A stretch of 64,000 nucleotides of DNA from an uncultured Acidobacteriota bacterium (GCA_963698025.1 OY969112.1:6629101-6693100), one strand, 5' to 3'; shown: positions 2,204 to 45,616, counted from the first letter of the stretch. Program-made: numbers and translations. The notes: generated by a model from the letters alone, not told the origin.

Positions 2204-4099
2204 CGGATCGAGCGCCAGTGAGAAGACGGGTGTCTCTCCCAGGCCCCCGTTCATCGCGGTCCACAGCCCGCCCCCGTTTCGCGTGACGTAGACGCCCCGG
2301 GTCGTGGCGGCGTAGAGCGTGCCCGGGGTCTTCGGGTCCGGCAGGAGATGCCCCACGAAGACTCCGGCCGCCAGGCCTCCCGACGCGGGCTTCCACGTTG
2401 CCCCGCCATCGGAGCTCTTGAAGATCTTCCGCCCCTTTGGCACGTAGATCGACGCGTAGAGCGTCCCCGGTGAGAACGGGTCCACCGCGAGATCCTGGAT
2501 GCTGCCGCGCAGCCCGCTCGCGGTCCGTTTCCAGCTCACGCCGCCATTCGTGCTCTTGAACAGGTGACTGCCCCCCGCGTACACGGTCGCGGGGTTCACC
2601 GGGTCCACGGCCAGGGAGGTCAGAAAATCGAACGGGTCCAGGCCCGGTACCCGCGCCCGCCGCCATTGAGCGGCGCCATCCACGCTCCGGAAGATGACGA
2701 TGGGGATGCCGTTCGCGTCGGAGATCGGAAAGCTGGACCACCCGATGGCGTAGAGCGCGTCCGGATTGGAAGGGGCGAGGGTGAGAGTGAAGACGAACTC
2801 GAGAAACCGGAGCCCCAGGCTGGCCTTCTCCCAGGTCTGTCCGCCGTCACGGGTCTTCAGCACCCAGGCGTTGGTCGCCAGGTACCAGGTTCCCGGCCGG
2901 GAGGGATCGGCCACGATCGCGTTGGCGAGGGGAGAGTTGTTGGGATCTCCGAACGGCGAATTCCAGGTGGCACCGCCGTCCGTGCTGCGGAGCAGGAACT
3001 GAGGCGTGAGCCCCAGTGAAGCGCCAGGCTCCGGCCTGACGATGGTAAAGAGAACTCCTGGCGTGTGGGGGTCGGCCGCGACCGCCGTGATCCCGAGCTC
3101 CCGCAGGCCGTGATTGGCGACCGTCCAGGAGCTTCCGGAGTCGTCGCTGCGATAGACCCCGCCGGCTTCTGTCCCCACGTAGATCCGCCCCGGGGAGCGC
3201 CCGTCCACGGCCAGATCTCTCGCGCCGTAAACCGGCAGGACCGGGGTCCAGCTCGCTCCACCATCGGTGCTCCGAAAAACCCCGTAGGAGCGATCCAGCA
3301 CGTAGACCGTGCCGGACGCGGGATCGATCGCCAGTTTCTCCGCATCCAAGAACACCCCGGCCGGCCCCGTCCAGACCGAGGACCACGTCGCTCCTCGATC
3401 GACGCTCTTGAAGATTCCCCCGAAGCCCGCCGCCGCGTACAGGGTCGCCGGCTGGCGGGGATCGATCGCCAGCGCCTGAAGGGACTGATATCCGCCGTTC
3501 GGGTTCTCGAGGCCGGCGCGGGCCTCCACCCATGTGGCCCCGCCGTCGTCGCTGCGGAAGCCTCCGGCATAGACGACGCGGGCGTCCACCGGATCGACGG
3601 CCAGAACGGACGCGGGGCCCGCGAAGCTCGTCGCCGTCCAGCTTGCGCCCCCATCGGTGCTCTTGAGGATCTGCTGATCGCGCGCCGCGTAGAGAACGTC
3701 CGGCGAGGACGGTGAGATGCGGAACGCCAGGAAAGCGCCTGCGAGCACGGGTCCCGCCCAGTTGGCCCCGCCGTCGGTCGACTTGAACAGGCCGTTGAAG
3801 GTCGTCGCGTACAGGATCCCGGCCCGCGCCGGGTCGGCCGTCAGCTCTCCAACGAACGGCAGGAGCTTGCCGCGCGTGGACCAGCTCGCCGCGCCCGCCG
3901 AGCTTTCGACGATGGTCCCTTGAGCAGTGGCCGCATAGACGCTCCCCGCCTCCCCGGGCGAAACGGCCAGAGCCTGGATCGAAGCCCCCTCGGGGCCGAT
4001 GGACCGCCATTGCGCCGCGGGGGAGAAGGCGGGCAGGGCGAAGAGGAGCAGGACGGTCAGCGGTAGAACCTTGAAGACACGCGCGGGGCTCTGGCTCAT
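2099..4099 (-). CDS. Secreted BNR/Asp-box repeat beta-propeller protein (sialidase/Ycf48-like fold)
   Basis: More than 10 Asp-box motifs (STDGGASWT, STDGGATW, STDGGANW, SDDGGATW, SVDRGATW, and others). Start chosen at internal Met 69 of the ORF (MSQSPARVFKVLPLTVLLLFALPAFSPAAQ, a signal peptide) with a GGAGGA Shine-Dalgarno sequence upstream. The longer ORF-track start has no signal peptide. Confidence 0.8.
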   Translation of the reverse strand: MSQSPARVFKVLPLTVLLLFALPAFSPAAQWRSIGPEGASIQALAVSPGEAGSVYAATAQGTIVESSAGAASWSTRGKLLPFVGELTADPARAGILYATTFNGLFKSTDGGANWAGPVLAGAFLAFRISPSSPDVLYAARDQQILKSTDGGASWTATSFAGPASVLAVDPVDARVVYAGGFRSDDGGATWVEARAGLENPNGGYQSLQALAIDPRQPATLYAAAGFGGIFKSVDRGATWSSVWTGPAGVFLDAEKLAIDPASGTVYVLDRSYGVFRSTDGGASWTPVLPVYGARDLAVDGRSPGRIYVGTEAGGVYRSDDSGSSWTVANHGLRELGITAVAADPHTPGVLFTIVRPEPGASLGLTPQFLLRSTDGGATWNSPFGDPNNSPLANAIVADPSRPGTWYLATNAWVLKTRDGGQTWEKASLGLRFLEFVFTLTLAPSNPDALYAIGWSSFPISDANGIPIVIFRSVDGAAQWRRARVPGLDPFDFLTSLAVDPVNPATVYAGGSHLFKSTNGGVSWKRTASGLRGSIQDLAVDPFSPGTLYASIYVPKGRKIFKSSDGGATWKPASGGLAAGVFVGHLLPDPKTPGTLYAATTRGVYVTRNGGGLWTAMNGGLGETPVFSLALDPLRPGVLYAGRADGLFEYSGSTADIEGALGNNERR

Positions 4100-4366
4100 C
4101 GGTCCTCCGATCAGAGTGCAAGGATCAATCCTCTCACGTGGGAGTGACTCGCTGCCGCGATTCATTTCTCGACCGGTCCCGCCGGGGTTGGGCTGGTCAC
4201 TGGTCGCACTCTGCCTGGGAACCTCAAACGCCCCCCCACCCATCGTAGACGCCGTCGTGCAAGTCCGCTCGCGAAGCGAGGGCGGCCGTCCAGCCGCTTG
4301 CACCGGGAAGGACGGCTTTGCGTCCGTCTATAAATTGCAGGACCAGGGAATCCGGCCTGACCGTGA

Positions 4367-6322
4367 ATGGACGATCGCGCATCGCGCACTGGAGGTACCC
4401 CGATGGAGCAGACGACGGAGCCAGGGCCTGAGCAGAATTCCTCCGTGAACACCCAGAGCGGCATTGAGGTCGGCACCGCGGTGAGCGCCACGGCCGAACC
4501 GAACAAGGTCGAGAAGGTCATCGTGGCGGTGCATGGAATCGGAGACCAGTACAGCTACGCGACGATCCAGTCGGTCGTCAACCAGTTCTGCGGCTATTAC
4601 AACCAGCCGGCCGCGGTTCCGCTGGGCAACTTCCATAGCGGTCAGGCCGCGTACTCGATCCCGCCGCCTTATCCGCGGGAGCCGTTCGGGCGGTTGGCTT
4701 TCGCGGAAGTCTACTGGGCGCCGATCGCGCGCAACGTAACGAATGAAAAGTACACGCTCGAAGAGACGAAGAAATGGGCGCGCACCATCGTCGAGCGCCT
4801 GCGATTGCGCTGGTGCGTGGAGGGCAGGAAAGGGCATTGTCACGAGGCTGACTTCCGGTTGACCCAGCAGGTGCTCGGCGAGATGATCCAGACGATCGCG
4901 GTCGTCGATCGGATCTGCTTCCTGGCCGACAAGGCCGGCCTTTTCACCTTCGACCTCAAGAAGCTGCTCGACGACTATCTCGGCGACGTGCAGATCGTGG
5001 CTGAGTTCAAGAAACAGCGCGACGAGATCCTGACGGCGTTTGACGAGCTCCTGGACAAAATCGAGGTAGCGTTTCCGAACGCGGATATCTACCTCGTAAC
5101 GCACAGCGAGGGGACGGTCGTCGCCTTGCTCGGACTGCTGCAGGCGTTCCGCGAGCCGGAGCCGCCCCGCTGGACCGATAAAGTGCGGGGCCTCATGACG
5201 CTGGGCTCGCCGATCGACAAGCACCTGGCCCTCTGGCCCGAGCTCTTCGGCGACAACCCGCCGAGCGTGAAGGCGCTCGCGGACCGGAGTGATCCACAGC
5301 AGAAGATCGACTGGCGCAACTACTATGACTTCGGCGATCCGGTCGGCTTCAATCTCGACGGCATTCGCGAATGGCTCGGGGCGAACCAGTGGAACGGCGT
5401 GTTCGATTTCGACGACTCTCACGACATGGGATTCACGCGCTACCCCTTTCCCGGCAAAGCCCATGTGGATTACTGGACGGACAAGGAGGTATTCGGCCAC
5501 TTCATCTCAACGGTTGTCGAGGCCGAGCCGGTCGCGCCAGCCAAGGCAGTTGGATCAGAGCTCAAGAAGGCTTGGCCGAAGCCCCCTGATTTGACGGATA
5601 AAAAATGGCTCAGCTACATTTTGCCCTATGCGGGAGTGATCGCTCTGCTGTTCGTCGCCTCCTATATTCTTTACAAGGCGGTCACCGGGGCCATGGGTTA
5701 TACCGGCCCCCTGATCGATGGAAGAGTGCCGCGAGAGCTGGCCAAGAGTCTCATCTTGCAACAGACCGCGGGGCTTGCGGCGCTCTTGCTGGGCATCACC
5801 GTCGTGGCCCGCATCCCTCGTCTCACGCGCAGCACTTTTTGGCGGGCGATCTCGTTCGCCATCGCAGGGTTTGGGGCGATCGCGTACATGTGGAGCGTGC
5901 GCGATAACGAAAGGATCACGCTGAAGGGTTTCTCGCTACTCCCGGGTGCAGTCACGCTCACTCTAGCCATCCTGGTGGTATGCCTGGTCTACCTGGCGAG
6001 CATAAAGCGACCTTCCTGGGGTTTGACGCCGCTGATGGTGCTCGGGGCGATCGCGGTTGCGACCATGGTCGTTTCTCACCTCGTGAGAGCCCCTGAGCGC
6101 ACTCCTGGACCTTTCTGGCCGTTATTCCTGGCGACCGTGGCCTTCCTCTATCTGTGGTGGCTCGCGGCGCTGCTGTTCGACCTGGTTTTCGTCTGGCACC
6201 TGTACATCCGCCATTCGAGGCTGATGGTGCGGGTCAACGAGGTTTTGGGAAAATACAAGGACCGGGTCAGTCAGCCTTTGCCTCAGCCTGTACCAACGGT
6301 GGTGGGAGTGGGGTCAAAATAG
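4367..6322 (+). CDS. Membrane-anchored alpha/beta-hydrolase (lipase/esterase-like N-terminal domain fused to a C-terminal polytopic membrane domain)
   Basis: N-terminal VIVAVHGIGDQ ... LVTHSEGTVV (a nucleophile-elbow-like THSEG) ... GSPIDKH. C-terminal ~260 aa contains about 8 hydrophobic helices. An alternative start MEQTTEP at 4403 has a better Shine-Dalgarno sequence (GGAGGT). Confidence 0.65.
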   Translation: MDDRASRTGGTPMEQTTEPGPEQNSSVNTQSGIEVGTAVSATAEPNKVEKVIVAVHGIGDQYSYATIQSVVNQFCGYYNQPAAVPLGNFHSGQAAYSIPPPYPREPFGRLAFAEVYWAPIARNVTNEKYTLEETKKWARTIVERLRLRWCVEGRKGHCHEADFRLTQQVLGEMIQTIAVVDRICFLADKAGLFTFDLKKLLDDYLGDVQIVAEFKKQRDEILTAFDELLDKIEVAFPNADIYLVTHSEGTVVALLGLLQAFREPEPPRWTDKVRGLMTLGSPIDKHLALWPELFGDNPPSVKALADRSDPQQKIDWRNYYDFGDPVGFNLDGIREWLGANQWNGVFDFDDSHDMGFTRYPFPGKAHVDYWTDKEVFGHFISTVVEAEPVAPAKAVGSELKKAWPKPPDLTDKKWLSYILPYAGVIALLFVASYILYKAVTGAMGYTGPLIDGRVPRELAKSLILQQTAGLAALLLGITVVARIPRLTRSTFWRAISFAIAGFGAIAYMWSVRDNERITLKGFSLLPGAVTLTLAILVVCLVYLASIKRPSWGLTPLMVLGAIAVATMVVSHLVRAPERTPGPFWPLFLATVAFLYLWWLAALLFDLVFVWHLYIRHSRLMVRVNEVLGKYKDRVSQPLPQPVPTVVGVGSK

Positions 6323-6433: not shown

Positions 6434-6802
6434 ATGAAGAACATCCTCTTCGTCTGTAGCCAGAACGAGCTGCGCAGCCCGACGGCGGAGCGGGTGTTCT
6501 CCGGGCGGCGGGACATCGAGGTCGCCTCCGCGGGACTCAATCACGACGCGCCTCAGCCGGTGACGCCGGAGCTGCTCGAGTGGGCCGACCTCATCTTCGT
6601 GATGGAGAAGGCCCACTTGAGCCGGATGCGCCGGCGGTTCCGGAAACACCTCAACCGGCAGCGTCTCGTCTGCCTGGACATCCCGGACCTCTACGACTAC
6701 ATGGAGCCGGCCCTGGTAGAGTTGCTGGAGGCCAAGGTCCCGCGACACCTGGGGCTGTCGATCACCCGCGGGCGCGATCAGCCCTTCCGCCCCTTGGCAT
6801 AG
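6434..6802 (+). CDS. Low-molecular-weight phosphatase family protein (LMW-PTP/ArsC-like)
   Basis: N-terminal ILFVCSQNELRSPTAE matches the CX5R(S/T) P-loop signature of LMW phosphatases. Length is 122 aa. Confidence 0.6.
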   Translation: MKNILFVCSQNELRSPTAERVFSGRRDIEVASAGLNHDAPQPVTPELLEWADLIFVMEKAHLSRMRRRFRKHLNRQRLVCLDIPDLYDYMEPALVELLEAKVPRHLGLSITRGRDQPFRPLA

Positions 6803-7260
6803 ATGGCCTCGTGGAAAGGTTTCCCCGCCCGCACGAGGTGGACGGAGCCGAGGGCGGCCAGCCGGCTGAGCGCCACCGAGGCGGTACGGCCGGTGACCGG
6901 CCGGCGCAGGCGCTTCTTGAAGGTCTCGTTGACCTCTCCGGCCATGGCGGAAGGGGTGAACCTCTCGCCGTCCACTTTGCCCGCGATCACTCGGCCGATC
7001 ATCTTGCTGAAGGTCGCCGGCGGGGCGGACTCGTCCGCGCCTTCCACCTTGACCCGCCGCACGACCTCTCCCGCCGCCGTCGCCGCGGTCTTGAAGGCCT
7101 CGTAGCGCTGGCGGATGCTCTCGAGCTCGCCCGCCCGCAGGGCGCGCTGTTCCCGGTGGAAGACCTCCTGCTGGGCATGGAAGGCTTCCTGGCCTTCGAG
7201 TTGCCGGACCTGCGCTTCCAGATCCTTCAAGACCTGGGCAATAGAGAGATCGGAGCTCAT
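6778..7260 (-). CDS. Hypothetical protein (160 aa)
   Basis: Start at internal Met 39 of ORF 6778..7374 (MSSDLSIAQVLKDLEAQ...), preceded by a GGGAGGAAG Shine-Dalgarno sequence. Protein-like composition and no recognisable domain. Overlaps the 3' end of 6434..6802 by 25 nt (convergent). Confidence 0.45.
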   Translation of the reverse strand: MSSDLSIAQVLKDLEAQVRQLEGQEAFHAQQEVFHREQRALRAGELESIRQRYEAFKTAATAAGEVVRRVKVEGADESAPPATFSKMIGRVIAGKVDGERFTPSAMAGEVNETFKKRLRRPVTGRTASVALSRLAALGSVHLVRAGKPFHEAIYAKGRKG

Positions 7261-7548
7261 CGCTTCCTCCCGGCCGGTTTGCGAACATGCGTCATCGGAT
7301 TCAGGTCGCAACAGTACCTCGGCAGCGGGCCCTCCGTCCAGTCCGGCGGCTCCACTGGGCTGACGATGCGTCATATCTGCCGGCGGCGAGAAAGAATCCC
7401 GGTCCTTGGGAACGAGATGCCAAAAAAATGGCGCGACCTCTCTGGAATCGCTTCAAAGAACGGAACGATGCATCAAGCGACGCCGAGATGCGACAGTTTT
7501 CGCGGTAAGATGTATCAATCCTGGAGGTGTGACGTCAAATGAATCGGC

Positions 7549-7691
7549 GATGCGACATATCCGGCGGAGTTGCGCCGTATCCAGAGGAGATGAAGCGTCG
7601 CCGGTGGAGATGATGCGTAGTCGATTGGGTATGCGGCGCCGTCTAGAGACGATGCATCATCTCCCGGAGAGATGCGCCGTATCTCCGGGCG
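7549..7691. repeat. Tandem array of seven degenerate 20-21-bp direct repeats (approximately GATGCGNCGTATCNCCGGNGGA) upstream of fhs
   Basis: Units begin at 7549, 7569, 7589, 7609, 7630, 7651 and 7671: gatgcgacatatccggcgga, gttgcgccgtatccagagga, gatgaagcgtcgccggtggag, gatgatgcgtagtcgattgggt, tatgcggcgccgtctagagac, gatgcatcatctcccggagag, gatgcgccgtatctccgggcg. Related single copies lie at 7363 (gatgcgtcatatctgccggcgg), 7487 and 7728. Confidence 0.6.
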
Positions 7692-7867
7692 TCACGACAC
7701 CGTCCCGTTCTGTCGCTTCATACGCTGTTGCGTTGCATCATATCCAGGGGCTCTGCATCAGAGAGGCGAGCGCTGAATGAATCCGCGCTTGTCGAAACCG
7801 CCCGGATTGGCGATGATCCCCCTCTCACCGCACTTCCGCGAGACTTCCGCGAGGAGGGGAGCCGACC

Positions 7868-40103: not shown

Positions 40104-41105
40104 GTGCTGCTGGCAGGCCTTCTGGGAGGATTGGCCGCCTGCGGGCCGGTGGCACCCAAGGGGAAGGCGCCGGCCGCCGCGGCGAAAGGGCGTACCGTGC
40201 CGCCGGTGGGGATCGAGCTGCAGCGGGGGCAGGACCCGCGGGAGCTGGTGCGGATCGAGACCCGCGACGTGGTGATCGGACCGGTCTCCGGGCCTCTGGA
40301 GCGGAAGTTCTTCGCCGATCCCCGGCGGTCGGACATCGCCTGGTACCTCCTGCGCACCTACGCTCCGTTCGAGATGAAGACGCCGGAAGGGGATCTCGCC
40401 TTCAACGGGCAGGGGAAGGTCAAGGCCGGTGCCACCGAGCAGCGGATGATCTTCGAGTGGACCCGCCAGTCGGCGGCCGAGGCGGCGGGTGGGAGGAGCG
40501 GCAGCGCCTACGGGCTGGCGTTCGCCTGGCACCAGGGGAACTCCTCGCTGGACTGCCAGGACGTGGTCGTCTACCTGACGGGCGAGGTGGCCGCCACCTC
40601 GTGCGGTTGGGACGGCGAGGTCCAGGGGCGCCTCGAGCCGGGAGCGCTCGGCCGGGTCTACGCCTGGTTCGACCGCCTGCAGCCGTTTCAGGGGGGAGGC
40701 GCCCAGACCGAGGAGAGCCTGCGCCCGGGCGCTCTCGAAACCAGGCTGGTCTTCGCCGGCAAGGGAAAGCATCCCGCCGCGGCCGGGGAGCAGGCGGAGA
40801 TCCAGTCCTTCGCCGCCGAGCTCTATTCGGAGCTGAACGCGAGGCGGTTAGGAGGAGCCCCCCCCGCGCCACCGCCGGCCGTGCCTCCGGGAACCAAACC
40901 CCCGCAGAAGCCCGCGCCCGTGCCTGTCGAAGCCCCGCCCGCCCGCCTCCTGCTGCCACCGGCGGCTCTCAATCCGAAGCCGGAGGAGATCGTTCTCCAG
41001 CTGCCCGAGAAGCCGCCGGCGCCGCCGCCGTCCGAGAGGCCGCCCAGGGAAGCCCCGCAGCGTCCCGCTCCGGCCGAGGCCGTCCAGCCGCCCGCGCAAC
41101 GGTAA
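40104..41105 (+). CDS. Lipoprotein with a Pro-rich C-terminal tail
   Basis: GTG start. MLLAGLLGGLAACGP has an L-A-A-C lipobox. The C-terminal 90 aa are Pro/Ala-rich (PPAPPPAVPPGTKPPQKPAPVPV...). Confidence 0.5.
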   Translation: MLLAGLLGGLAACGPVAPKGKAPAAAAKGRTVPPVGIELQRGQDPRELVRIETRDVVIGPVSGPLERKFFADPRRSDIAWYLLRTYAPFEMKTPEGDLAFNGQGKVKAGATEQRMIFEWTRQSAAEAAGGRSGSAYGLAFAWHQGNSSLDCQDVVVYLTGEVAATSCGWDGEVQGRLEPGALGRVYAWFDRLQPFQGGGAQTEESLRPGALETRLVFAGKGKHPAAAGEQAEIQSFAAELYSELNARRLGGAPPAPPPAVPPGTKPPQKPAPVPVEAPPARLLLPPAALNPKPEEIVLQLPEKPPAPPPSERPPREAPQRPAPAEAVQPPAQR

Positions 41106-41523
41106 GTTGGCGAGCCCGAGACCTCTCCAGCTGCCGTTGGTATATAGAACGGAGCGATTCTTATATAGAACAGCCATGCGGAATGGACTTCGTGCCTTCT
41201 CTCTATATACAAACCTCCCATTTCTATATAGGCAGGTCTCATCGAGACCTTAAAAGCACGCAAAATTTGCACAGAACCTCATCTCGGAACCTTACAAGCC
41301 CCCATTTTTTGATAGAAACAGACCAAATTCACAGCTTTATGGGGCGTGGAATCCTTGGCAGGACCCCTTTGTATATATAAAAGACCGATTTATATATAAG
41401 AACCAGCCACTGAGCTCATCCGAGGCCACCTGCGTATATATTTTTGGGTCATCTCTATATAGAAAGCACCTCTGGAGTCCTCCCAAAGAGGCGCGAAGTG
41501 GAGACGACGCTAGAGAAAGACGT
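41106..41523. repeat. AT-rich intergenic island (about 42% GC) with nine phased TATATAGAA-like motifs and a short perfect palindrome
   Basis: Motifs at 41140 (tatatagaac), 41161 (tatatagaac), 41203 (ctatatacaa), 41223 (tctatatagg), 41308 (ttgatagaaac), 41371 (tatatataaaag), 41391 (tatatataagaac), 41435 (tatatatttttg) and 41457 (tatatagaaag). Spacings are 21, 42-44, 20, 85, 63, 20, 44 and 22 bp, all multiples of about 21 bp. ggtctc-atc-gagacc lies at 41234-41248. The island sits between convergent gene ends. Confidence 0.6.
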
Positions 41524-41808
41524 TCATCGGCCCCCCGGCTCCCGTTTTTTCCGCGAGTAGGCCGCCGCAGCCAGGAGATCCCGTATGGCGGGGCCGATGC
41601 AGTCGGCGAGGACGCACTCGATCACCGCGCGGAGCTCCGTGGCGACATCGTTCTCCTCTTCGCTCTCCTCTTCCCGATCTCCGGTGGCCGGCGCCGGCAG
41701 GCTTCCGTGAAGCGTCCGCAATCGCTTCTCGATCTTTTTCAGGTCCTCGGCCACACCCTGTAGATTGTCCTGCACCGCGGCTTCCAGCTCCGAATCACCC
41801 TCGCTCAT
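41524..41808 (-). CDS. Small acidic hypothetical protein (94 aa)
   Basis: ATG with a GGAGGGAGG Shine-Dalgarno sequence. MSEGDSELEAAVQDNLQGVAEDLKKIEKRLRTLHG...REEESEEENDVATELRAVIECVLADC... Divergent from the XRE-TPR regulator. Confidence 0.5.
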   Translation of the reverse strand: MSEGDSELEAAVQDNLQGVAEDLKKIEKRLRTLHGSLPAPATGDREEESEEENDVATELRAVIECVLADCIGPAIRDLLAAAAYSRKKREPGGR

Positions 41809-42093
41809 CCGGCTTCGCCTCCCTCCAGAACCTCCGTTTCAAGAGAGGCTAAAGAGATGGCGCGATCTGCCGGAAGGCGCCGGCGGTCTCAGGCCGCCGG
41901 GCTCACAAATCAGGGCACAGGCGGGGTGATCCCCGGCGGAGTCATCCCCGGCGGGCCTCTTCTCCCAGCCGGACCCTGGGCAGCTGGGACCGAACGAACG
42001 AGGGGCGGGCCGCTCACGGGCGATCGCGGCAGGGGTAATGCCCAGCCGTGCCGGTTTCCCTTCAGGCGTATCGTACGGCGGCATCAAATGATC

Positions 42094-42152
42094 CCTTCAA
42101 CGTGTGGGGGTGTCACGCCATGGTCCTGGCTTACACTCTATATCGTTGAAGG
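42094..42152. promoter_or_regulatory. 9-bp inverted repeat (ccttcaacg ... cgttgaagg) 21 nt upstream of the XRE-TPR regulator start; a candidate operator
   Basis: Arms at 42094-42102 and 42144-42152 with a 41-bp spacer. The position is consistent with autoregulation. No -10/-35 assignment was attempted. Confidence 0.2.
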
Positions 42153-42172
42153 ACGACATCGGAGGGAGCTGC

Positions 42173-43645
42173 ATGGCGTCGAAGAAATTGTCGGATCTGA
42201 ACCTCGCGCTGACGGTGATGCGGTCCGCGCTGAGCTGGAATCAGGCGGAGCTGGCCCGGGTGGCCGGGCTGCCGCCCAATGCCGTCTCGGACTTCGAGCG
42301 TGGGAACCGGGCGTTCTCCCTCGAAAGGCTGGAGGAGCTGGCCAGCGTCATGGGGCTGCCGCCGGGGGCGGTCGACCAGGCCCGCATCTTCGTCCGTTCC
42401 ATGGGCCAGCAGGCCAGGGCTCCCGGCGATCCCGACGAGGACGCCGAAGCGGACCGCAGGCACGTGGAGCAGGTCGCCGCCCAGGCTGGGAACGTCACCA
42501 TGGAATTCGCTCGCACGCTGCTGAATTCCCTCACCGCCGAGGGCCGGGCCCTGGTGTTCCGCCGGCAGGCGCGGGTGCTCTGGCGGAGGATGCAGAGGCA
42601 CACGCCCTCCGAGCGGCGAGCGTTCGTCGAGGCGGATCCGGAATTCCGGAGCTGGGCTCTCTGCGAGCTGATCTGCAAGGAGAGCATCAAGGCGGCAGCC
42701 GACAATGCCGATCGCGCCGGCGAGCTCGCGGATCTGGCCCTGCTCATCGCAGACCTCGCGCCCCTCGAGGCGAGCTGGCGCCGGCGCCTCCAGGGCTACG
42801 CCTGGGCTCACGTCGGCAATGCCCGGCGGGTCCGGGGTGACCTGCCGGGCGCTGAAGAGGCCTTTTCCCGTGCAGGCGAGCTCTGGAAAACCGGCACGCA
42901 CGGTGATCCGGGGCTCCTCGATGAGGCCCAGGTGTTCAGCCTGGAAGCTTCCCTGCGCACGACTCAGGGGCGCTTGCCAGAAGCCGCGATCCTCCTCGAT
43001 CAGGCGCTCGCGCTTGCTCCCAGGAATCTCAGACCGAATCTGCTCCTTCAAAAGGCAAGGCTGCTGGAGTGGGCCGGGAGCTATGAGAGTGCCTTAACGA
43101 CGCTGGCGGAGGCGGCTCCTCTCATTACTCAACAGAACGAGCCGAGGCTACTCTTCATGCTACGGCACAACTATGCCTCGAACCTGACACATCTCGGGCG
43201 GTATGCGGAAGCCGAGGCGTTACTGCCCGAGATCCAGCCGCTGGCAGTCCGGCTCGATAACCAGCTTGACGGATTGCGAGTGCATTGGATGCGGGGGCGG
43301 ATCGAGGCTGGCCTGGGAAAGATGGATGACGCTCTCGTGGCGTTGTCCCAGGTACGGACAGAGTTCGCGGCCCGGGGCACCGCCTATGACGCCGCACTGA
43401 TTACGCTTGAGTTGGCCACACTCTATCTGGAGCAAGGGCGTACCTGGGAAGTCAAGACGCTCGCGCGCCAGATGACGCCGATTTTTCACACGCAAGGAGT
43501 TCATCGCGAGGCTTTAGCGGCTCTAAAGCTGTTCTGTGAAGCGGCCGAAAAGGAATTGGCCACTGTGGAATTAGCGCGACGAATGGTGGAGTACCTTTAT
43601 AGAGCTCGCCACAACCCGACACTCCGTTTTGGGGAGCGCCCATGA
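42173..43645 (+). CDS. XRE-family HTH transcriptional regulator with a long C-terminal TPR-like helical domain (490 aa)
   Basis: Start at internal Met 24 (MASKKLSDLNLALTVMRSALSWNQAELARVAGLPPNAVSDFERGN...) with a GGAGGGA Shine-Dalgarno sequence. The C-terminal 300 aa form repeated helical hairpins (…YESALTTLAEAAPL…LGRYAEAEALL…LGKMDDALVAL…YDAALITLELATLYLEQGRTWE…). Paralog of the partial gene at 1..753. Confidence 0.8.
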   Translation: MASKKLSDLNLALTVMRSALSWNQAELARVAGLPPNAVSDFERGNRAFSLERLEELASVMGLPPGAVDQARIFVRSMGQQARAPGDPDEDAEADRRHVEQVAAQAGNVTMEFARTLLNSLTAEGRALVFRRQARVLWRRMQRHTPSERRAFVEADPEFRSWALCELICKESIKAAADNADRAGELADLALLIADLAPLEASWRRRLQGYAWAHVGNARRVRGDLPGAEEAFSRAGELWKTGTHGDPGLLDEAQVFSLEASLRTTQGRLPEAAILLDQALALAPRNLRPNLLLQKARLLEWAGSYESALTTLAEAAPLITQQNEPRLLFMLRHNYASNLTHLGRYAEAEALLPEIQPLAVRLDNQLDGLRVHWMRGRIEAGLGKMDDALVALSQVRTEFAARGTAYDAALITLELATLYLEQGRTWEVKTLARQMTPIFHTQGVHREALAALKLFCEAAEKELATVELARRMVEYLYRARHNPTLRFGERP

Positions 43646-43701
43646 GACACCGGACCGGAGTGAGTACACGCCGGTCCAGTGGAGCTATAGGCGTACTCCG
43701 T

Positions 43702-44010
43702 TCAATGTCCGCTTACGCAACGGCCATTGGGATCGATCGACATCCCATTTTCGCAGGGCCCTGCGGAGCTACTGGTGGTGGGCTGGCTCGTGAGCAGGCC
43801 ATTCGGATCGGCACTGCCCCTGGCCTTGCTCCAGAAATTGGCGAGAGCTCCCCAAAGCTGCCCGAAAACTCCCCCCACCTCCTGGGCGACGGATGGGCCG
43901 GAGCGATGTGAGACACGGCTCCGGAGCTCGGAGGCGGAGACCCACGGGCTGACGAGGGTCAATCCCAGGACGAGAGCGACCACGGCACGGCGGAACGACA
44001 GACTGGACAT
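43702..44010 (-). CDS. Small secreted protein (102 aa), paralog of 1006..1296
   Basis: Start at internal Met 12 (MSSLSFRRAVVALVLGLTLVSPWVSAS, a signal peptide) with an AAAGGAG Shine-Dalgarno sequence. Mature region GQLWGALANFWSKARGSADPNG ... NGMSIDPNG aligns with RLWSLLGSFWEKEGSSLDPDG ... EGSSLDPN of the 1006..1296 product. It supersedes the opposite-strand ORF 43642..43911. Confidence 0.55.
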   Translation of the reverse strand: MSSLSFRRAVVALVLGLTLVSPWVSASELRSRVSHRSGPSVAQEVGGVFGQLWGALANFWSKARGSADPNGLLTSQPTTSSSAGPCENGMSIDPNGRCVSGH

Positions 44011-44151
44011 GACAGCGGCTCCTTTCGAGGCGGCTTCCACCACGGCCTTCAGGGCCGGGCCGGCGCCTCACCTGGGTATGTTGCCTCCAGACGTGCCGGA
44101 AAATCACCCCAAGAAGTGCATGAGGTATGCGTACCGAGGAGGAAAATCAGG

Positions 44152-44559
44152 ATGCCACGCCGGGACAACACCGAAGACGCGAAGGTCGTCGTCGCCTTTC
44201 TGCGCCTGCTCCGAGGCTGGACTCAGACGGAGTTGGCGGAGGCCGCGGGGCTCTCCGCCAGTGCCGTCAGCCGCTATGAGAGCGGGGACATCGTCCCCAG
44301 CCGCGAGGCACTGGAGGAGATCGCGGTGGCCACGGGCCTGCCGTTGCGGATGCTGGACCGGGTCTTCATCTGGGTCGGCGCGGCGCGAGCCGCCGTGGAG
44401 AGCGCGGCCGATCCGGGCGATCCGGACCGGCTGATCGCCGCCGCCGCGAGTGAGATGACGGCCGGGCTCACAGACCTCTTCGACTCCATCACGGCCAGGA
44501 TGCTCGCCGGCCTTCCGGACCTCGAAGCCGGCCCCTGGGGGAGGCGCTCCACGGTATAA
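44152..44559 (+). CDS. Short XRE-family HTH protein (135 aa); equals the N-terminal module of the XRE-TPR regulators and lacks the TPR-like domain
   Basis: Start at internal Met 13 with a GAGGAGGA Shine-Dalgarno sequence. LRGWTQTELAEAAGLSASAVSRYESGDIVPSREALEEIAVATGLPLRMLDRVFIWV...PGDPDR aligns with ELARVAGLPPNAVSDFERGNRAFSLERLEELASVMGLPPGAVDQARIFV...PGDPDED of the 42173 protein. Divergent from the secreted peptide gene, 141 bp away. Confidence 0.7.
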   Translation: MPRRDNTEDAKVVVAFLRLLRGWTQTELAEAAGLSASAVSRYESGDIVPSREALEEIAVATGLPLRMLDRVFIWVGAARAAVESAADPGDPDRLIAAAASEMTAGLTDLFDSITARMLAGLPDLEAGPWGRRSTV

Positions 44560-44641
44560 TGTCCGGCATTCGGATTTCCTGATGCCGGCGTCAGGCGCAC
44601 GTCTGCCTGGCGATGAATAAGCAGAATAGGAGAGAGAGACG

Positions 44642-45616
44642 ATGAGGCGTGCGGTATCTGCTCTGCTGGCGTTGGTAATGATCGCAAGCTGCGGCATCCT
44701 GTCCCCGGTCACGGCACAGACCAAGGCGGTTTCATCCGGCGTAACGATGACCAACGCCTATGATGCCTTTGGGCCGGAACGCAAGGGCCTGAAGCAGGAT
44801 TTTGGCTTCTCTTGCGTCGTGAGCTACAAGGGAAAATGGATCTTGTTCGACTCGGGGACCGACGCCAGGGTTTTCGAAAGCAATCTCAGGGCGCTGAAGA
44901 TCGATCTGCGGAAAATTGACATCGCCATCGTGTCGCATGGGCATTACGACCACATCGGCGGCTTCGATTACCTGCTGAGCGTCAACCCGAAGGTCAAGAT
45001 TTACCTCCCCAACGATTTTTTCTCTCTCGGCGCTCCCATCAAGTTTCCCTTTCGCGAGCCCGAGCTGGACGCGGCGAAGGCACTGCCTAAAGACGAGCAG
45101 TATTTTCGCGGCGAGCGCGTCGTCGAGGGCATGGTCACCGTGCCGACGGGCAGGTTCTGGAAGTCGAACGTGGAGTACGTCACCGAACCGAAGGAAGTGC
45201 TGCCCGGCGTTACCTTGATCCCGACGACCTCCAAGTTGATGGGAACGTTCATCAAATATCCTCCTTTTGGTGATGAGCATCCTCAGTTCATCGGCATGCC
45301 CGAGCTGTCGGTTTCATTTGCCACCGCCAAGGGCGAAATCATCCTGGCGGGCTGCTCGCACAGCACCATCGAGACGATCATTCAGGAGACCCAGAAAGTC
45401 CGGAAGGGAAAGATCTACCTGGTCGCCGGAGGGTTCCACCTCATCCCCTATGGCCGCGAGTACATCGAGGGCTTGGCGAAGCGCATGCGCGAGCAGTACG
45501 GTGTGGAGTCCGTCGCTCCGGCGCACTGCACCGGGCAGCTGGCGTTCTCGATTTTTCATCAGGTGTTTGGCGATAACTACAGAGTCTTTGGGCTCGGTAC
45601 GACGATTAACCTCTAG
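44642..45616 (+). CDS. Secreted MBL-fold metallo-hydrolase
   Basis: AGGAGAGAGAGA Shine-Dalgarno sequence. Signal peptide MRRAVSALLALVMIASCGILSPVTAQ. Contains SHGHYDHIGG (the HxHxDH motif). About 55% GC, lower than the surroundings. Confidence 0.8.
   Translation: MRRAVSALLALVMIASCGILSPVTAQTKAVSSGVTMTNAYDAFGPERKGLKQDFGFSCVVSYKGKWILFDSGTDARVFESNLRALKIDLRKIDIAIVSHGHYDHIGGFDYLLSVNPKVKIYLPNDFFSLGAPIKFPFREPELDAAKALPKDEQYFRGERVVEGMVTVPTGRFWKSNVEYVTEPKEVLPGVTLIPTTSKLMGTFIKYPPFGDEHPQFIGMPELSVSFATAKGEIILAGCSHSTIETIIQETQKVRKGKIYLVAGGFHLIPYGREYIEGLAKRMREQYGVESVAPAHCTGQLAFSIFHQVFGDNYRVFGLGTTINL

Follow-up and report, generated by a model that had tools for sequence, protein, structure and literature searches.

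A helically phased TATATA array in an AT-rich intergenic island of an uncultured Acidobacteriota bacterium: a candidate protein-binding element

Which role, if any, is played by an AT-rich island lying between the ends of two convergent genes is the question raised by positions 41106-41523 of the stretch of DNA analysed here, which consists of 64,000 nucleotides from an uncultured Acidobacteriota bacterium (GCA_963698025.1 OY969112.1:6629101-6693100) and is referred to below as the window. The island contains a regular array of TATATA boxes, and the explanation favoured here, to which about an even chance is given, is that it constitutes a cis-acting, helically phased array to which a predicted sequence-specific DNA-binding protein, encoded by none of the adjacent genes, would bind, and that it works as an insulator or silencer. 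Confidence is higher for the protein-binding part of this proposal than for the insulator part.

The island is the longest and lowest-GC stretch of the window. Its guanine plus cytosine (GC) content is 46.4%, against 67.8% for the whole 64 kb; the original prediction, made from the sequence alone, had recognised this strong drop but placed the value at about 42%, and it is only in a core of 200 bp that 40% is reached. On the left, the island is flanked by a lipoprotein-like gene of the plus strand (40104-41105; 333 amino acids with a Pro-rich tail), and on the right by the minus-strand gene of a 94-amino-acid acidic protein (41524-41808), which is the first gene of an XRE-TPR/secreted-peptide module and lies outside the array. 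The convergent arrangement that had been proposed, with stops at 41105 and 41524, is therefore correct, and so is the absence of a plausible open reading frame: those found in 41106-41523 are artefacts of 20-49 codons rich in "YI" and "LY". Homologues of both flanking proteins are found in metagenome-assembled genomes of Thermoanaerobaculia (Acidobacteriota). The island is not an assembly artefact, as three metagenome assemblies made independently of one another (L001, L002 and L118) contain it.

The 21-bp lattice and its conservation

TATATA occurs ten times in the window and all ten occurrences fall within 41141-41461, with 0.20 expected; the longer word TATATAGAA, allowing at most one mismatch, is matched 13 times against 0.51 expected, with 12 of the matches inside the island. 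Eight exact boxes start at 41141, 41162, 41204, 41225, 41372, 41393, 41435 and 41456, and the eight share phase 2 modulo 21, for which the probability under random placement is ~2e-9. The nine motifs spaced at about 21 bp of the original prediction thus resolve into eight exact boxes plus a degenerate ninth, at coordinates shifted by 1-2 bp and with spacings that are sharper than had been thought, namely exact multiples of 21; just two of the boxes, rather than several, read TATATAGAAC exactly. In an unbiased scan for phased k-mers, the TATATA array was the top-ranked array of the window and the sole phased one in its 64 kb.

The boxes are arranged in pairs 21 bp apart, and the pairs of pairs at 63 or 84 bp, in a single register maintained across ~320 bp. 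Each pair forms a 27-bp site, TATATA-N15-TATATA, and the four sites build two 90-bp dyad units located 231 bp apart. Unit A (41134-41231) contains as an inverted pair, with a 36-bp gap, site 1 (41141-41167; boxes 1 and 2 at lattice positions 0 and 1) and site 2 (41204-41230; boxes 3 and 4 at positions 3 and 4), whose arms are 91% complementary. Unit B (41365-41466) has the same construction and the same 36-bp gap, and is composed of site 3 (41372-41398; boxes 5 and 6 at positions 11 and 12), which has the perfect 10-nucleotide arms TATATATAAA and TTTATATATA, and site 4 (41435-41461; boxes 7 and 8 at positions 14 and 15). Unit B is a direct repeat of unit A at an offset of 231 bp, that is, 11 x 21. 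Each box is in turn an 18-bp dyad with the consensus C-n-T-y-T-C-TATATA-G-A-r-a-n-G, a form that suits a homodimer, and because all the boxes belong to one 21-bp lattice, all the bound proteins would face the same side of the helix over ~320 bp.

The boxes and their spacing have been maintained during the divergence of the locus. The comparison was anchored on the lattice, and the window was compared with L118 and L002 on the side of unit B, and on that of unit A with L145 and L146; site 1 is conserved in L145 and L146, and site 4 in L002 and L118. In these four related contigs no change was found in 78 box positions, against 80 changes in 331 positions of non-box island DNA (Fisher p = 5e-9). 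In L146, three boxes are kept together with the 15- and 36-bp lengths of the spacers, whose identity is just 44%. As boxes and spacer lengths are kept while the spacers diverge to this extent, the pattern reflects selection and not decay, and on the basis of these alignments the boxes and the spacer length are under purifying selection. Repeated dyad sites in helical register, kept against drifting spacers, are what distinguishes a phased cooperative protein-binding array, and they are what the island contains. Thus, among the roles originally suggested for it, a cooperative binding array is the one that the exact phasing, the dyad boxes and the conserved spacer lengths favour.

The history of the locus gives further information on the position of the island. 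The lipoprotein gene belongs to the core genes of Thermoanaerobaculia and in L150 converges directly on mprF/corA without any spacer; elsewhere the gap between them holds an insertion sequence (L149) or unrelated small genes (L147 and L148), and in the window ~6.3 kb of accessory genes. From these variable contents it follows that an insertion hot spot lies here, with the island on its core-side margin. L145, whose lipoprotein is 97% identical, corresponds to the window minus the blocks 41172-41591, 41609-42028 and 42055-44548, and the alignment of L145 3183-3500 with window 41055-44696 keeps colinear remnants of 17 and 26 nucleotides between the missing blocks. To judge from this alignment, L145 is the product of a multi-step deletion of boxes 3-8 and of the whole regulator/peptide module, in spite of which site 1 remains intact. 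In L147 and L148 (79% and 75% lipoprotein identity) there is no TATATA at the same intergenic position; instead, L147 7107-7431 and L148 7162-7530 contain 14-15 CATTCCC/GGGAATG/GGGAAC motifs in one 10.5/21-bp register over more than 320 bp, some of which form palindromes such as GGGGAATGATTCATTCCCC. The CATTCCC array of L148 is bracketed by a 19-nucleotide inverted repeat, TTCAGTTGTCAAAGAGCCC / GGGATCTTTGACAACTGAA (7104-7122 / 7791-7809), with 95% complementarity; L147 shares the left copy, for which no partner was found in the stretch searched (6900-7800).

Other features of the island are of less weight. The degenerate box, TTGATA(GAA), occupies 41309-41314 at lattice position 8 and overlaps the one place in the 64 kb where the IHF consensus WATCAANNNNTTR is matched with at most one mismatch, located at the midpoint of the array (41302-41314, minus strand, one mismatch); chance matches to this consensus are likelier in AT-rich DNA. 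Three half G-boxes of the plus strand are in register with the lattice: GGAAT at 41180-41184 (position 2), GGAAC at 41286-41290 (position 7) and GGAAT at 41348-41352 (position 10). A terminator-like hairpin followed by a T-rich tail (41469-41489, minus strand) abuts box 8 and is likely to be the terminator of the 94-amino-acid gene. Finally, the palindrome GGTCTC-ATC-GAGACC noted originally does exist at 41234-41248, but it is probably incidental and not functional; no weight is given to it because it is disrupted by a G-to-A change at 41246 in the ~98%-identical metagenome contig L001.

Related arrays in other genomes

A four-box pattern was used to scan 185,579 species genomes, and the members of the family were picked among the matches listed with 64-68% GC. 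Most of the matches listed were AT-rich noise or 21-bp tandem repeats; the same architecture was found among them in other Acidobacteriota/Thermoanaerobaculia genomes, with six boxes all at phase 8 in L008, nine all at phase 16 in L040, twelve all at phase 5 and spanning 357 bp in L092, ten in L110 (9/10 at phase 5) and four TATATA boxes in L059. Scanning of metagenomes added one further member, L127, with ten on-lattice boxes at phase 4, the remaining matches being AT-rich tandem repeats, and in scans of viral sequences no contig above ~53% GC was present among the matches. The spacers of the family arrays are GC-rich and unrelated between copies, and nothing but the lattice and the box with its adjoining bases is common to them. 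When 67 boxes were aligned, a dyad consensus was obtained that carries information to +/-9 bp. A second word is placed on the same lattice in the window, L008, L040, L092 and L110: GGAAC is centred at x.88 and GTTCC at x.12 lattice units, offsets which imply a full palindrome, CGGAACGTTCCG, centred on the lattice points. No description of TATATA lattices of this kind was found in a full-text search of the literature, and the arrays apparently constitute, as far as can be judged from the sequences, an undescribed family in Thermoanaerobaculia.

The genomic contexts of the arrays are diverse. In L040 and L092, the first pair of boxes lies 49 and 56 bp, respectively, upstream of homologous VapB(PF09957)-PIN operons with differing neighbourhoods, and L127 has its array 76 bp ahead of the BrnT-BrnA(CopG/RHH) start codon, directly adjoining the stop of a Uma2 gene. 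Among the other arrays, that of L008 follows namZ, that of L059 precedes tyrS and that of L110 is located ~490 bp upstream of a GlsB-like gene. A location at toxin-antitoxin promoters for three of the six or seven independent arrays, among the matches listed, looks like more than chance, in a small sample. A dyad site at an antitoxin promoter is therefore a property of the arrays of L040, L092 and L127, but not of the window array. No Rep, Par, integrase or transposase gene was revealed beside the arrays of the window, L008, L040, L092, L110 and L127 when their neighbouring genes were scanned with Pfam; a Y1 (IS200-like) transposase-like gene is located 3.2 kb from the L040 array.

Several observations were made in passing on 21-bp repeats and on the surroundings of these arrays. 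Many contigs of Bacteroidota, Ignavibacteria and other groups (L011, L026, L068, L087, L104, L108, L117 and others) contain long perfect 21-bp tandem repeats that include TATATA and are often contig-terminal; that of L068 is near an AbiEii-like ATPase, and no Rep gene was found beside the five such repeats of other phyla that were inspected (L086, L089, L143, L026 and L068). Upstream of tyrS in L059 (845-1530), three 21-bp lattice arrays follow one another, composed of GGGTTGCGACGC (~10 direct and two inverted copies), CTATCGGCG (four direct copies in a 9+12-bp format, plus inverted ones) and then the four TATATA boxes. L003, which carries the 94-amino-acid module as well, has at 4090-4440 ~17 tandem 21-bp units (g-y-GTGACGCAA-n-TCCGCGGGTC) in a gene-free gap of 1.3 kb. 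Two matches to the Acido-Lenti-1 RNA (RF01687) at gathering score are found in L008 (6432-6477, minus strand, and 6594-6639, plus strand), within 1.4 kb that contain no convincing gene, at 190-350 bp from the TATATA array on its downstream side. L040 encodes on its minus strand (794-1252) two tandem peptides of ~70 amino acids beginning MNKADVIRAWKDPLYRASL, which presumably resemble class II lanthipeptide precursors.

Alternative explanations

Before the alternatives are weighed, the neighbouring genes have to be described. Positions 41524-44559 of the window contain a conserved module of four genes: that of the 94-amino-acid protein, a divergent XRE-TPR regulator of ~490 amino acids (42174-43645), a secreted protein of ~102 amino acids with a signal peptide (~43702-44011, minus strand) and a second XRE protein, of ~270 amino acids in the complete form. 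The window copy of the latter (44152-44559) has only 135 amino acids, which align with residues 1-133 of the 267-amino-acid L005 homologue at 75% identity, the C-terminal half being missing. Homology to L145, which lacks the module, resumes at 44549, indicating that the module is truncated at its right edge. It sits at differing genomic places in L002, L003, L005 and L006, and looks like an RRNPP-type regulator/peptide system in Acidobacteriota.

The main rival to a dedicated binding array takes TATATA-N15-TATATA as an operator for ribbon-helix-helix antitoxin/toxin complexes, in which two antitoxin dimers about two turns apart would be bridged by toxin dimers; the window array would then be bound in trans, or would be a relic left when the XRE-TPR module replaced a toxin-antitoxin operon. 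This explanation is considered unlikely, although the distance of 49-76 bp from the array to the VapB-PIN and BrnT-BrnA operons, the repetition of the vapBC-plus-array unit in two differing contexts and the 4 x 21-bp TATATA repeat located 124 bp upstream of ccdA in L089 (Gallionellales) speak for it. The half-sites of the FitAB operator (IR36) are ~22 bp apart. In Rickettsia felis, VapBC2 has a near-palindromic operator of 27 bp whose half-sites are centred on TATATA and are each bound by an antitoxin dimer (PMC3326315). The array site resembles it in being a 27-bp dyad of two internally palindromic TATATA-type boxes, but the centres of the boxes are 21 bp apart instead of ~14 bp, and 8-12 boxes, far above known toxin-antitoxin operators, take the place of two. 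Besides, a single box would have to be read by three antitoxin families, arrays are also found beside tyrS, namZ and glsB-like genes, and in the lineage of the window the boxes are still under selection without a toxin-antitoxin neighbour, no such gene being present at the array and no VapBC or BrnTA homologue in the 64 kb. Plasmid VapB homologues are only ~39% identical, and their operators are uninformative. A neutral or selfish repeat without host function, be it a decaying tandem repeat, a miniature inverted-repeat transposable element (MITE) or a repetitive extragenic palindromic (REP)-like sequence, would account for the inverted repeats within the units, for the position between convergent genes in an insertion hot spot, for the 21-bp arrays of other words in related contigs (L003 4090-4440 and L059 845-1480) and perhaps for the Y1 gene near the L040 array and the weak dyad covariation within sites. 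It is nevertheless distinctly unlikely, since boxes and spacer lengths are conserved with spacers down to 44% identity, and copies are alike in the 6-18-bp box and the lattice only, where recent mobility would leave more; the 64 kb contain just this one copy, there are no terminal inverted repeats or target duplications around the island, and neither the island nor the 3.5-kb indel has bounding inverted repeats. REP sequences and bacterial interspersed mosaic elements are likewise extragenic, often between convergent genes and in inverted pairs, but they share a whole palindrome of 20-40 nucleotides, whereas here it is TATATA and its spacing that are shared, and the window has no adjacent RAYT-type gene. 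A MITE or REP-like repeat in the strict sense was thus rejected.

A plasmid-type cis site, relic or active, such as an iteron origin or a parC-like centromere, is very unlikely. The 21-bp period, the two four-box clusters around a 135-bp AT-rich centre with an IHF-like site and the toxin-antitoxin linkage of other arrays, as on plasmids, would agree with it, and the swap of motifs on a conserved lattice in relatives recalls the diversification of incompatibility specificities. But no rep, parA, parM, parR or parB is found within several kb of eight arrays, the boxes are dyads instead of direct repeats, the flanks are core chromosomal genes, and the search for DnaA boxes (TTATCCACA at two mismatches or fewer in 41100-41530), for a switch of GC skew in the 64 kb and for plasmid or phage similarity by blastn gave nothing. 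The replication origin contemplated in the original prediction fails for lack of a rep gene near any array, a DnaA box and a skew switch. It was also suggested there that the island belongs to the neighbouring regulator/peptide locus, and a binding array for XRE-TPR and/or the short XRE, acting as reservoir or operator bank of a quorum-sensing-like module, would fit the contiguity of island and module, their joint loss in L145, the 12-18-bp dyads suitable for helix-turn-helix dimers and an element, TCTATATCG, 25 bp upstream of the XRE-TPR start. Such a role is hardly probable: there is no array 3' of the 94-amino-acid gene in L003/L004, L005 and L006, although L003, L005 and L006 have homologous modules, and six arrays (L008, L040, L092, L110, L127 and L145) occur without the module, L145 keeping site 1 with both regulators gone. 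The conserved XRE-TPR promoter element reads TCTCTATCA in L003 and L006, where it is not a TATATA box, and it agrees with a TAnnnT -10 hexamer better than with an operator. From the lack of co-occurrence, the survival of site 1 and this promoter element, it follows that the island is not part of the XRE-TPR module. It is highly improbable that the inverted units serve as non-coding RNA genes or form hairpins in single-stranded DNA. Units A and B are inverted repeats with 75-76% complementarity, the fold z-score of the minus strand is -2.5, and pairing within sites is slightly above that of shuffles (75.7% vs 70.5%; 0/500 shuffles), with the inner flanks about half paired; this excess of self-complementarity in the inner flanks of TATATA-N15-TATATA may be the trace of an inverted duplication from which the sites arose, or of a hairpin intermediate. 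On the other hand, the plus-strand z-score is -1.0, 40-60% of the positions outside the self-complementary TATATA are unpaired in an alignment of twelve 90-bp units, under both the unit-level and the site-level hairpin models, and in L118 the site-3 spacer differs at 7/15 positions with its would-be partner spacer unaltered. Rfam gave no match on 7 kb, nor on 551 bp with lax thresholds, and no promoter or terminator for such a transcript was found. In duplex DNA a strict period of 21 bp has a clear significance, and we know of none in RNA. The clustered small-RNA promoters that had been considered have the same evidence against them, to which is added that the arrays of the window, L040, L092 and L127 contain no sigma-70-like promoter and that no register of the box supplies the conserved T with which the -10 hexamer ends.

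Other classes of element were tried and rejected. The lack of a GC-skew switch in the 64 kb speaks against a chromosomal origin or terminus, and the scan for tRNA and tmRNA found nothing. With regard to coding, the TAT-ATA frame is open in several of the GC-rich arrays, but in the window it has stops on both strands, and codon bias would lead one to expect the reverse of so strict a retention of TATATA. A CRISPR array was discarded because the conserved core is 6 bp long (18 bp if degenerate positions are included) and palindromic, with no cas among the genes annotated on either side. That both flanks are 3' ends of genes and that no promoter was found in the array also speaks against a parC-type centromere.

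A predicted nucleoprotein block at the borders of accessory DNA

It remains to consider how a phased binding array could work. Each box would be bound by a dimeric sequence-specific protein, and the dimers would bind cooperatively, as dimers of dimers and then in higher order. Owing to the two-turn spacing, they would be placed on one face of the DNA, where they could polymerise or bridge to form a stable nucleoprotein block, and units A and B might be joined by a central bend at the IHF-like site (41302-41314), a detail to which little weight is attached. The arrays fill whole intergenic spaces, here between the core lipoprotein gene and a variable insert of ~6 kb and elsewhere upstream of toxin-antitoxin operons, and it is this occupation of whole spacers, both where accessory DNA is bordered and ahead of toxin-antitoxin operons, that favours insulation or silencing. 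In the window, the block may act as a roadblock to read-through or convergent transcription between the lipoprotein and 94-amino-acid units, and at other loci it may control the promoter of, or repress, the adjacent accessory or toxin-antitoxin operon.

Several points weigh against this proposal. Both the binder and its binding are predictions; the contexts of the arrays are mixed (convergent, tandem and divergent), and no single regulatory logic is proven; and as no promoter faces the window array, a classical operator role is impossible here. Moreover, the dyad covariation within sites goes beyond what column composition gives and could reflect a hairpin-based origin or function, and both the census of the family and its association with toxin-antitoxin operons rest on few loci.

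By analogy, the array would work like plasmid centromeres, iteron banks or cooperative operator arrays, but the corresponding partner genes (rep, par, toxin-antitoxin) do not accompany it. The parC site of plasmid R1 has 2 x 5 iterons around a promoter and that of pSK41 has 20-bp repeats, both bound by ribbon-helix-helix adaptors. As in these centromeres, two phased clusters of short repeats flank a centre in a non-coding cis site where cooperative binding on one face would be expected; unlike them, the island has no parM, parA or parR nearby and consists of dyads on a 21-bp lattice with empty positions, and its relatives are chromosomal, are found at many loci and conserve a core of only 6-18 bp. 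The iteron arrays of the theta plasmids P1, F, R6K and RK2, which are defined by at least three direct repeats of 17-22 bp with ~22-bp phasing, are similar in their period of about two helical turns and their AT-rich centre, which is also present in the island. The 21-bp phasing of the island is exact, but its repeats are palindromic instead of direct, with 6-18 bp conserved, and lack a rep gene, a DnaA box and plasmid similarity. The xenogeneic silencers H-NS and Lsr2 prefer for nucleation AT islands rich in TpA steps within GC-rich genomes, and a patch rich in AT and TpA bordering lower-GC accessory DNA in a 68%-GC genome makes a silencing role plausible; the strict lattice and the 18-bp dyad consensus are unlike such nucleation sites, and we know of no silencer of the H-NS/Lsr2 type in this class. 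The LytTR sites (AgrA, ComE), linked to peptide signalling, consist of 9-bp direct repeats with a 12-bp spacer at promoters. Their repeat distance is also 21 bp, and the CTATCGGCG-N12 x 4 of L059 has the exact 9+12 format, but they are pairs of direct repeats at promoters with another consensus, and no LytTR gene is present among the genes annotated around the island.

A bolder version of the phased-array proposal, which is doubtful and has few loci behind it, would see in Thermoanaerobaculia a 21-bp "lattice code" of interchangeable dyad words (TATATA, GGAACGTTCC, CATTCCC, CTATCGGCG and GGGTTGCGACGC) at two-turn intervals. One or a few oligomerising proteins would form one-sided filaments on them, marking and insulating or silencing accessory DNA and toxin-antitoxin operons, and each locus would retain its lattice even as the word written on it is replaced. 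To our knowledge, a chromatin-like boundary system of this kind has not been described in bacteria.

If the arrays are selfish repeats, the finding is an ordinary one. The maintenance of an exact 21-bp register over more than 300 bp despite the drift of the spacers is an unusually clean natural case of selection on helical phasing. The arrays might account for the insulation of toxin-antitoxin operons and small accessory modules in genomes of very high GC content. Should the lattice indeed be read by a protein, the arrays would represent a new cis-regulatory or architectural element in an abundant and poorly studied soil phylum, and would offer a handle on the nucleoid or boundary proteins of that phylum.

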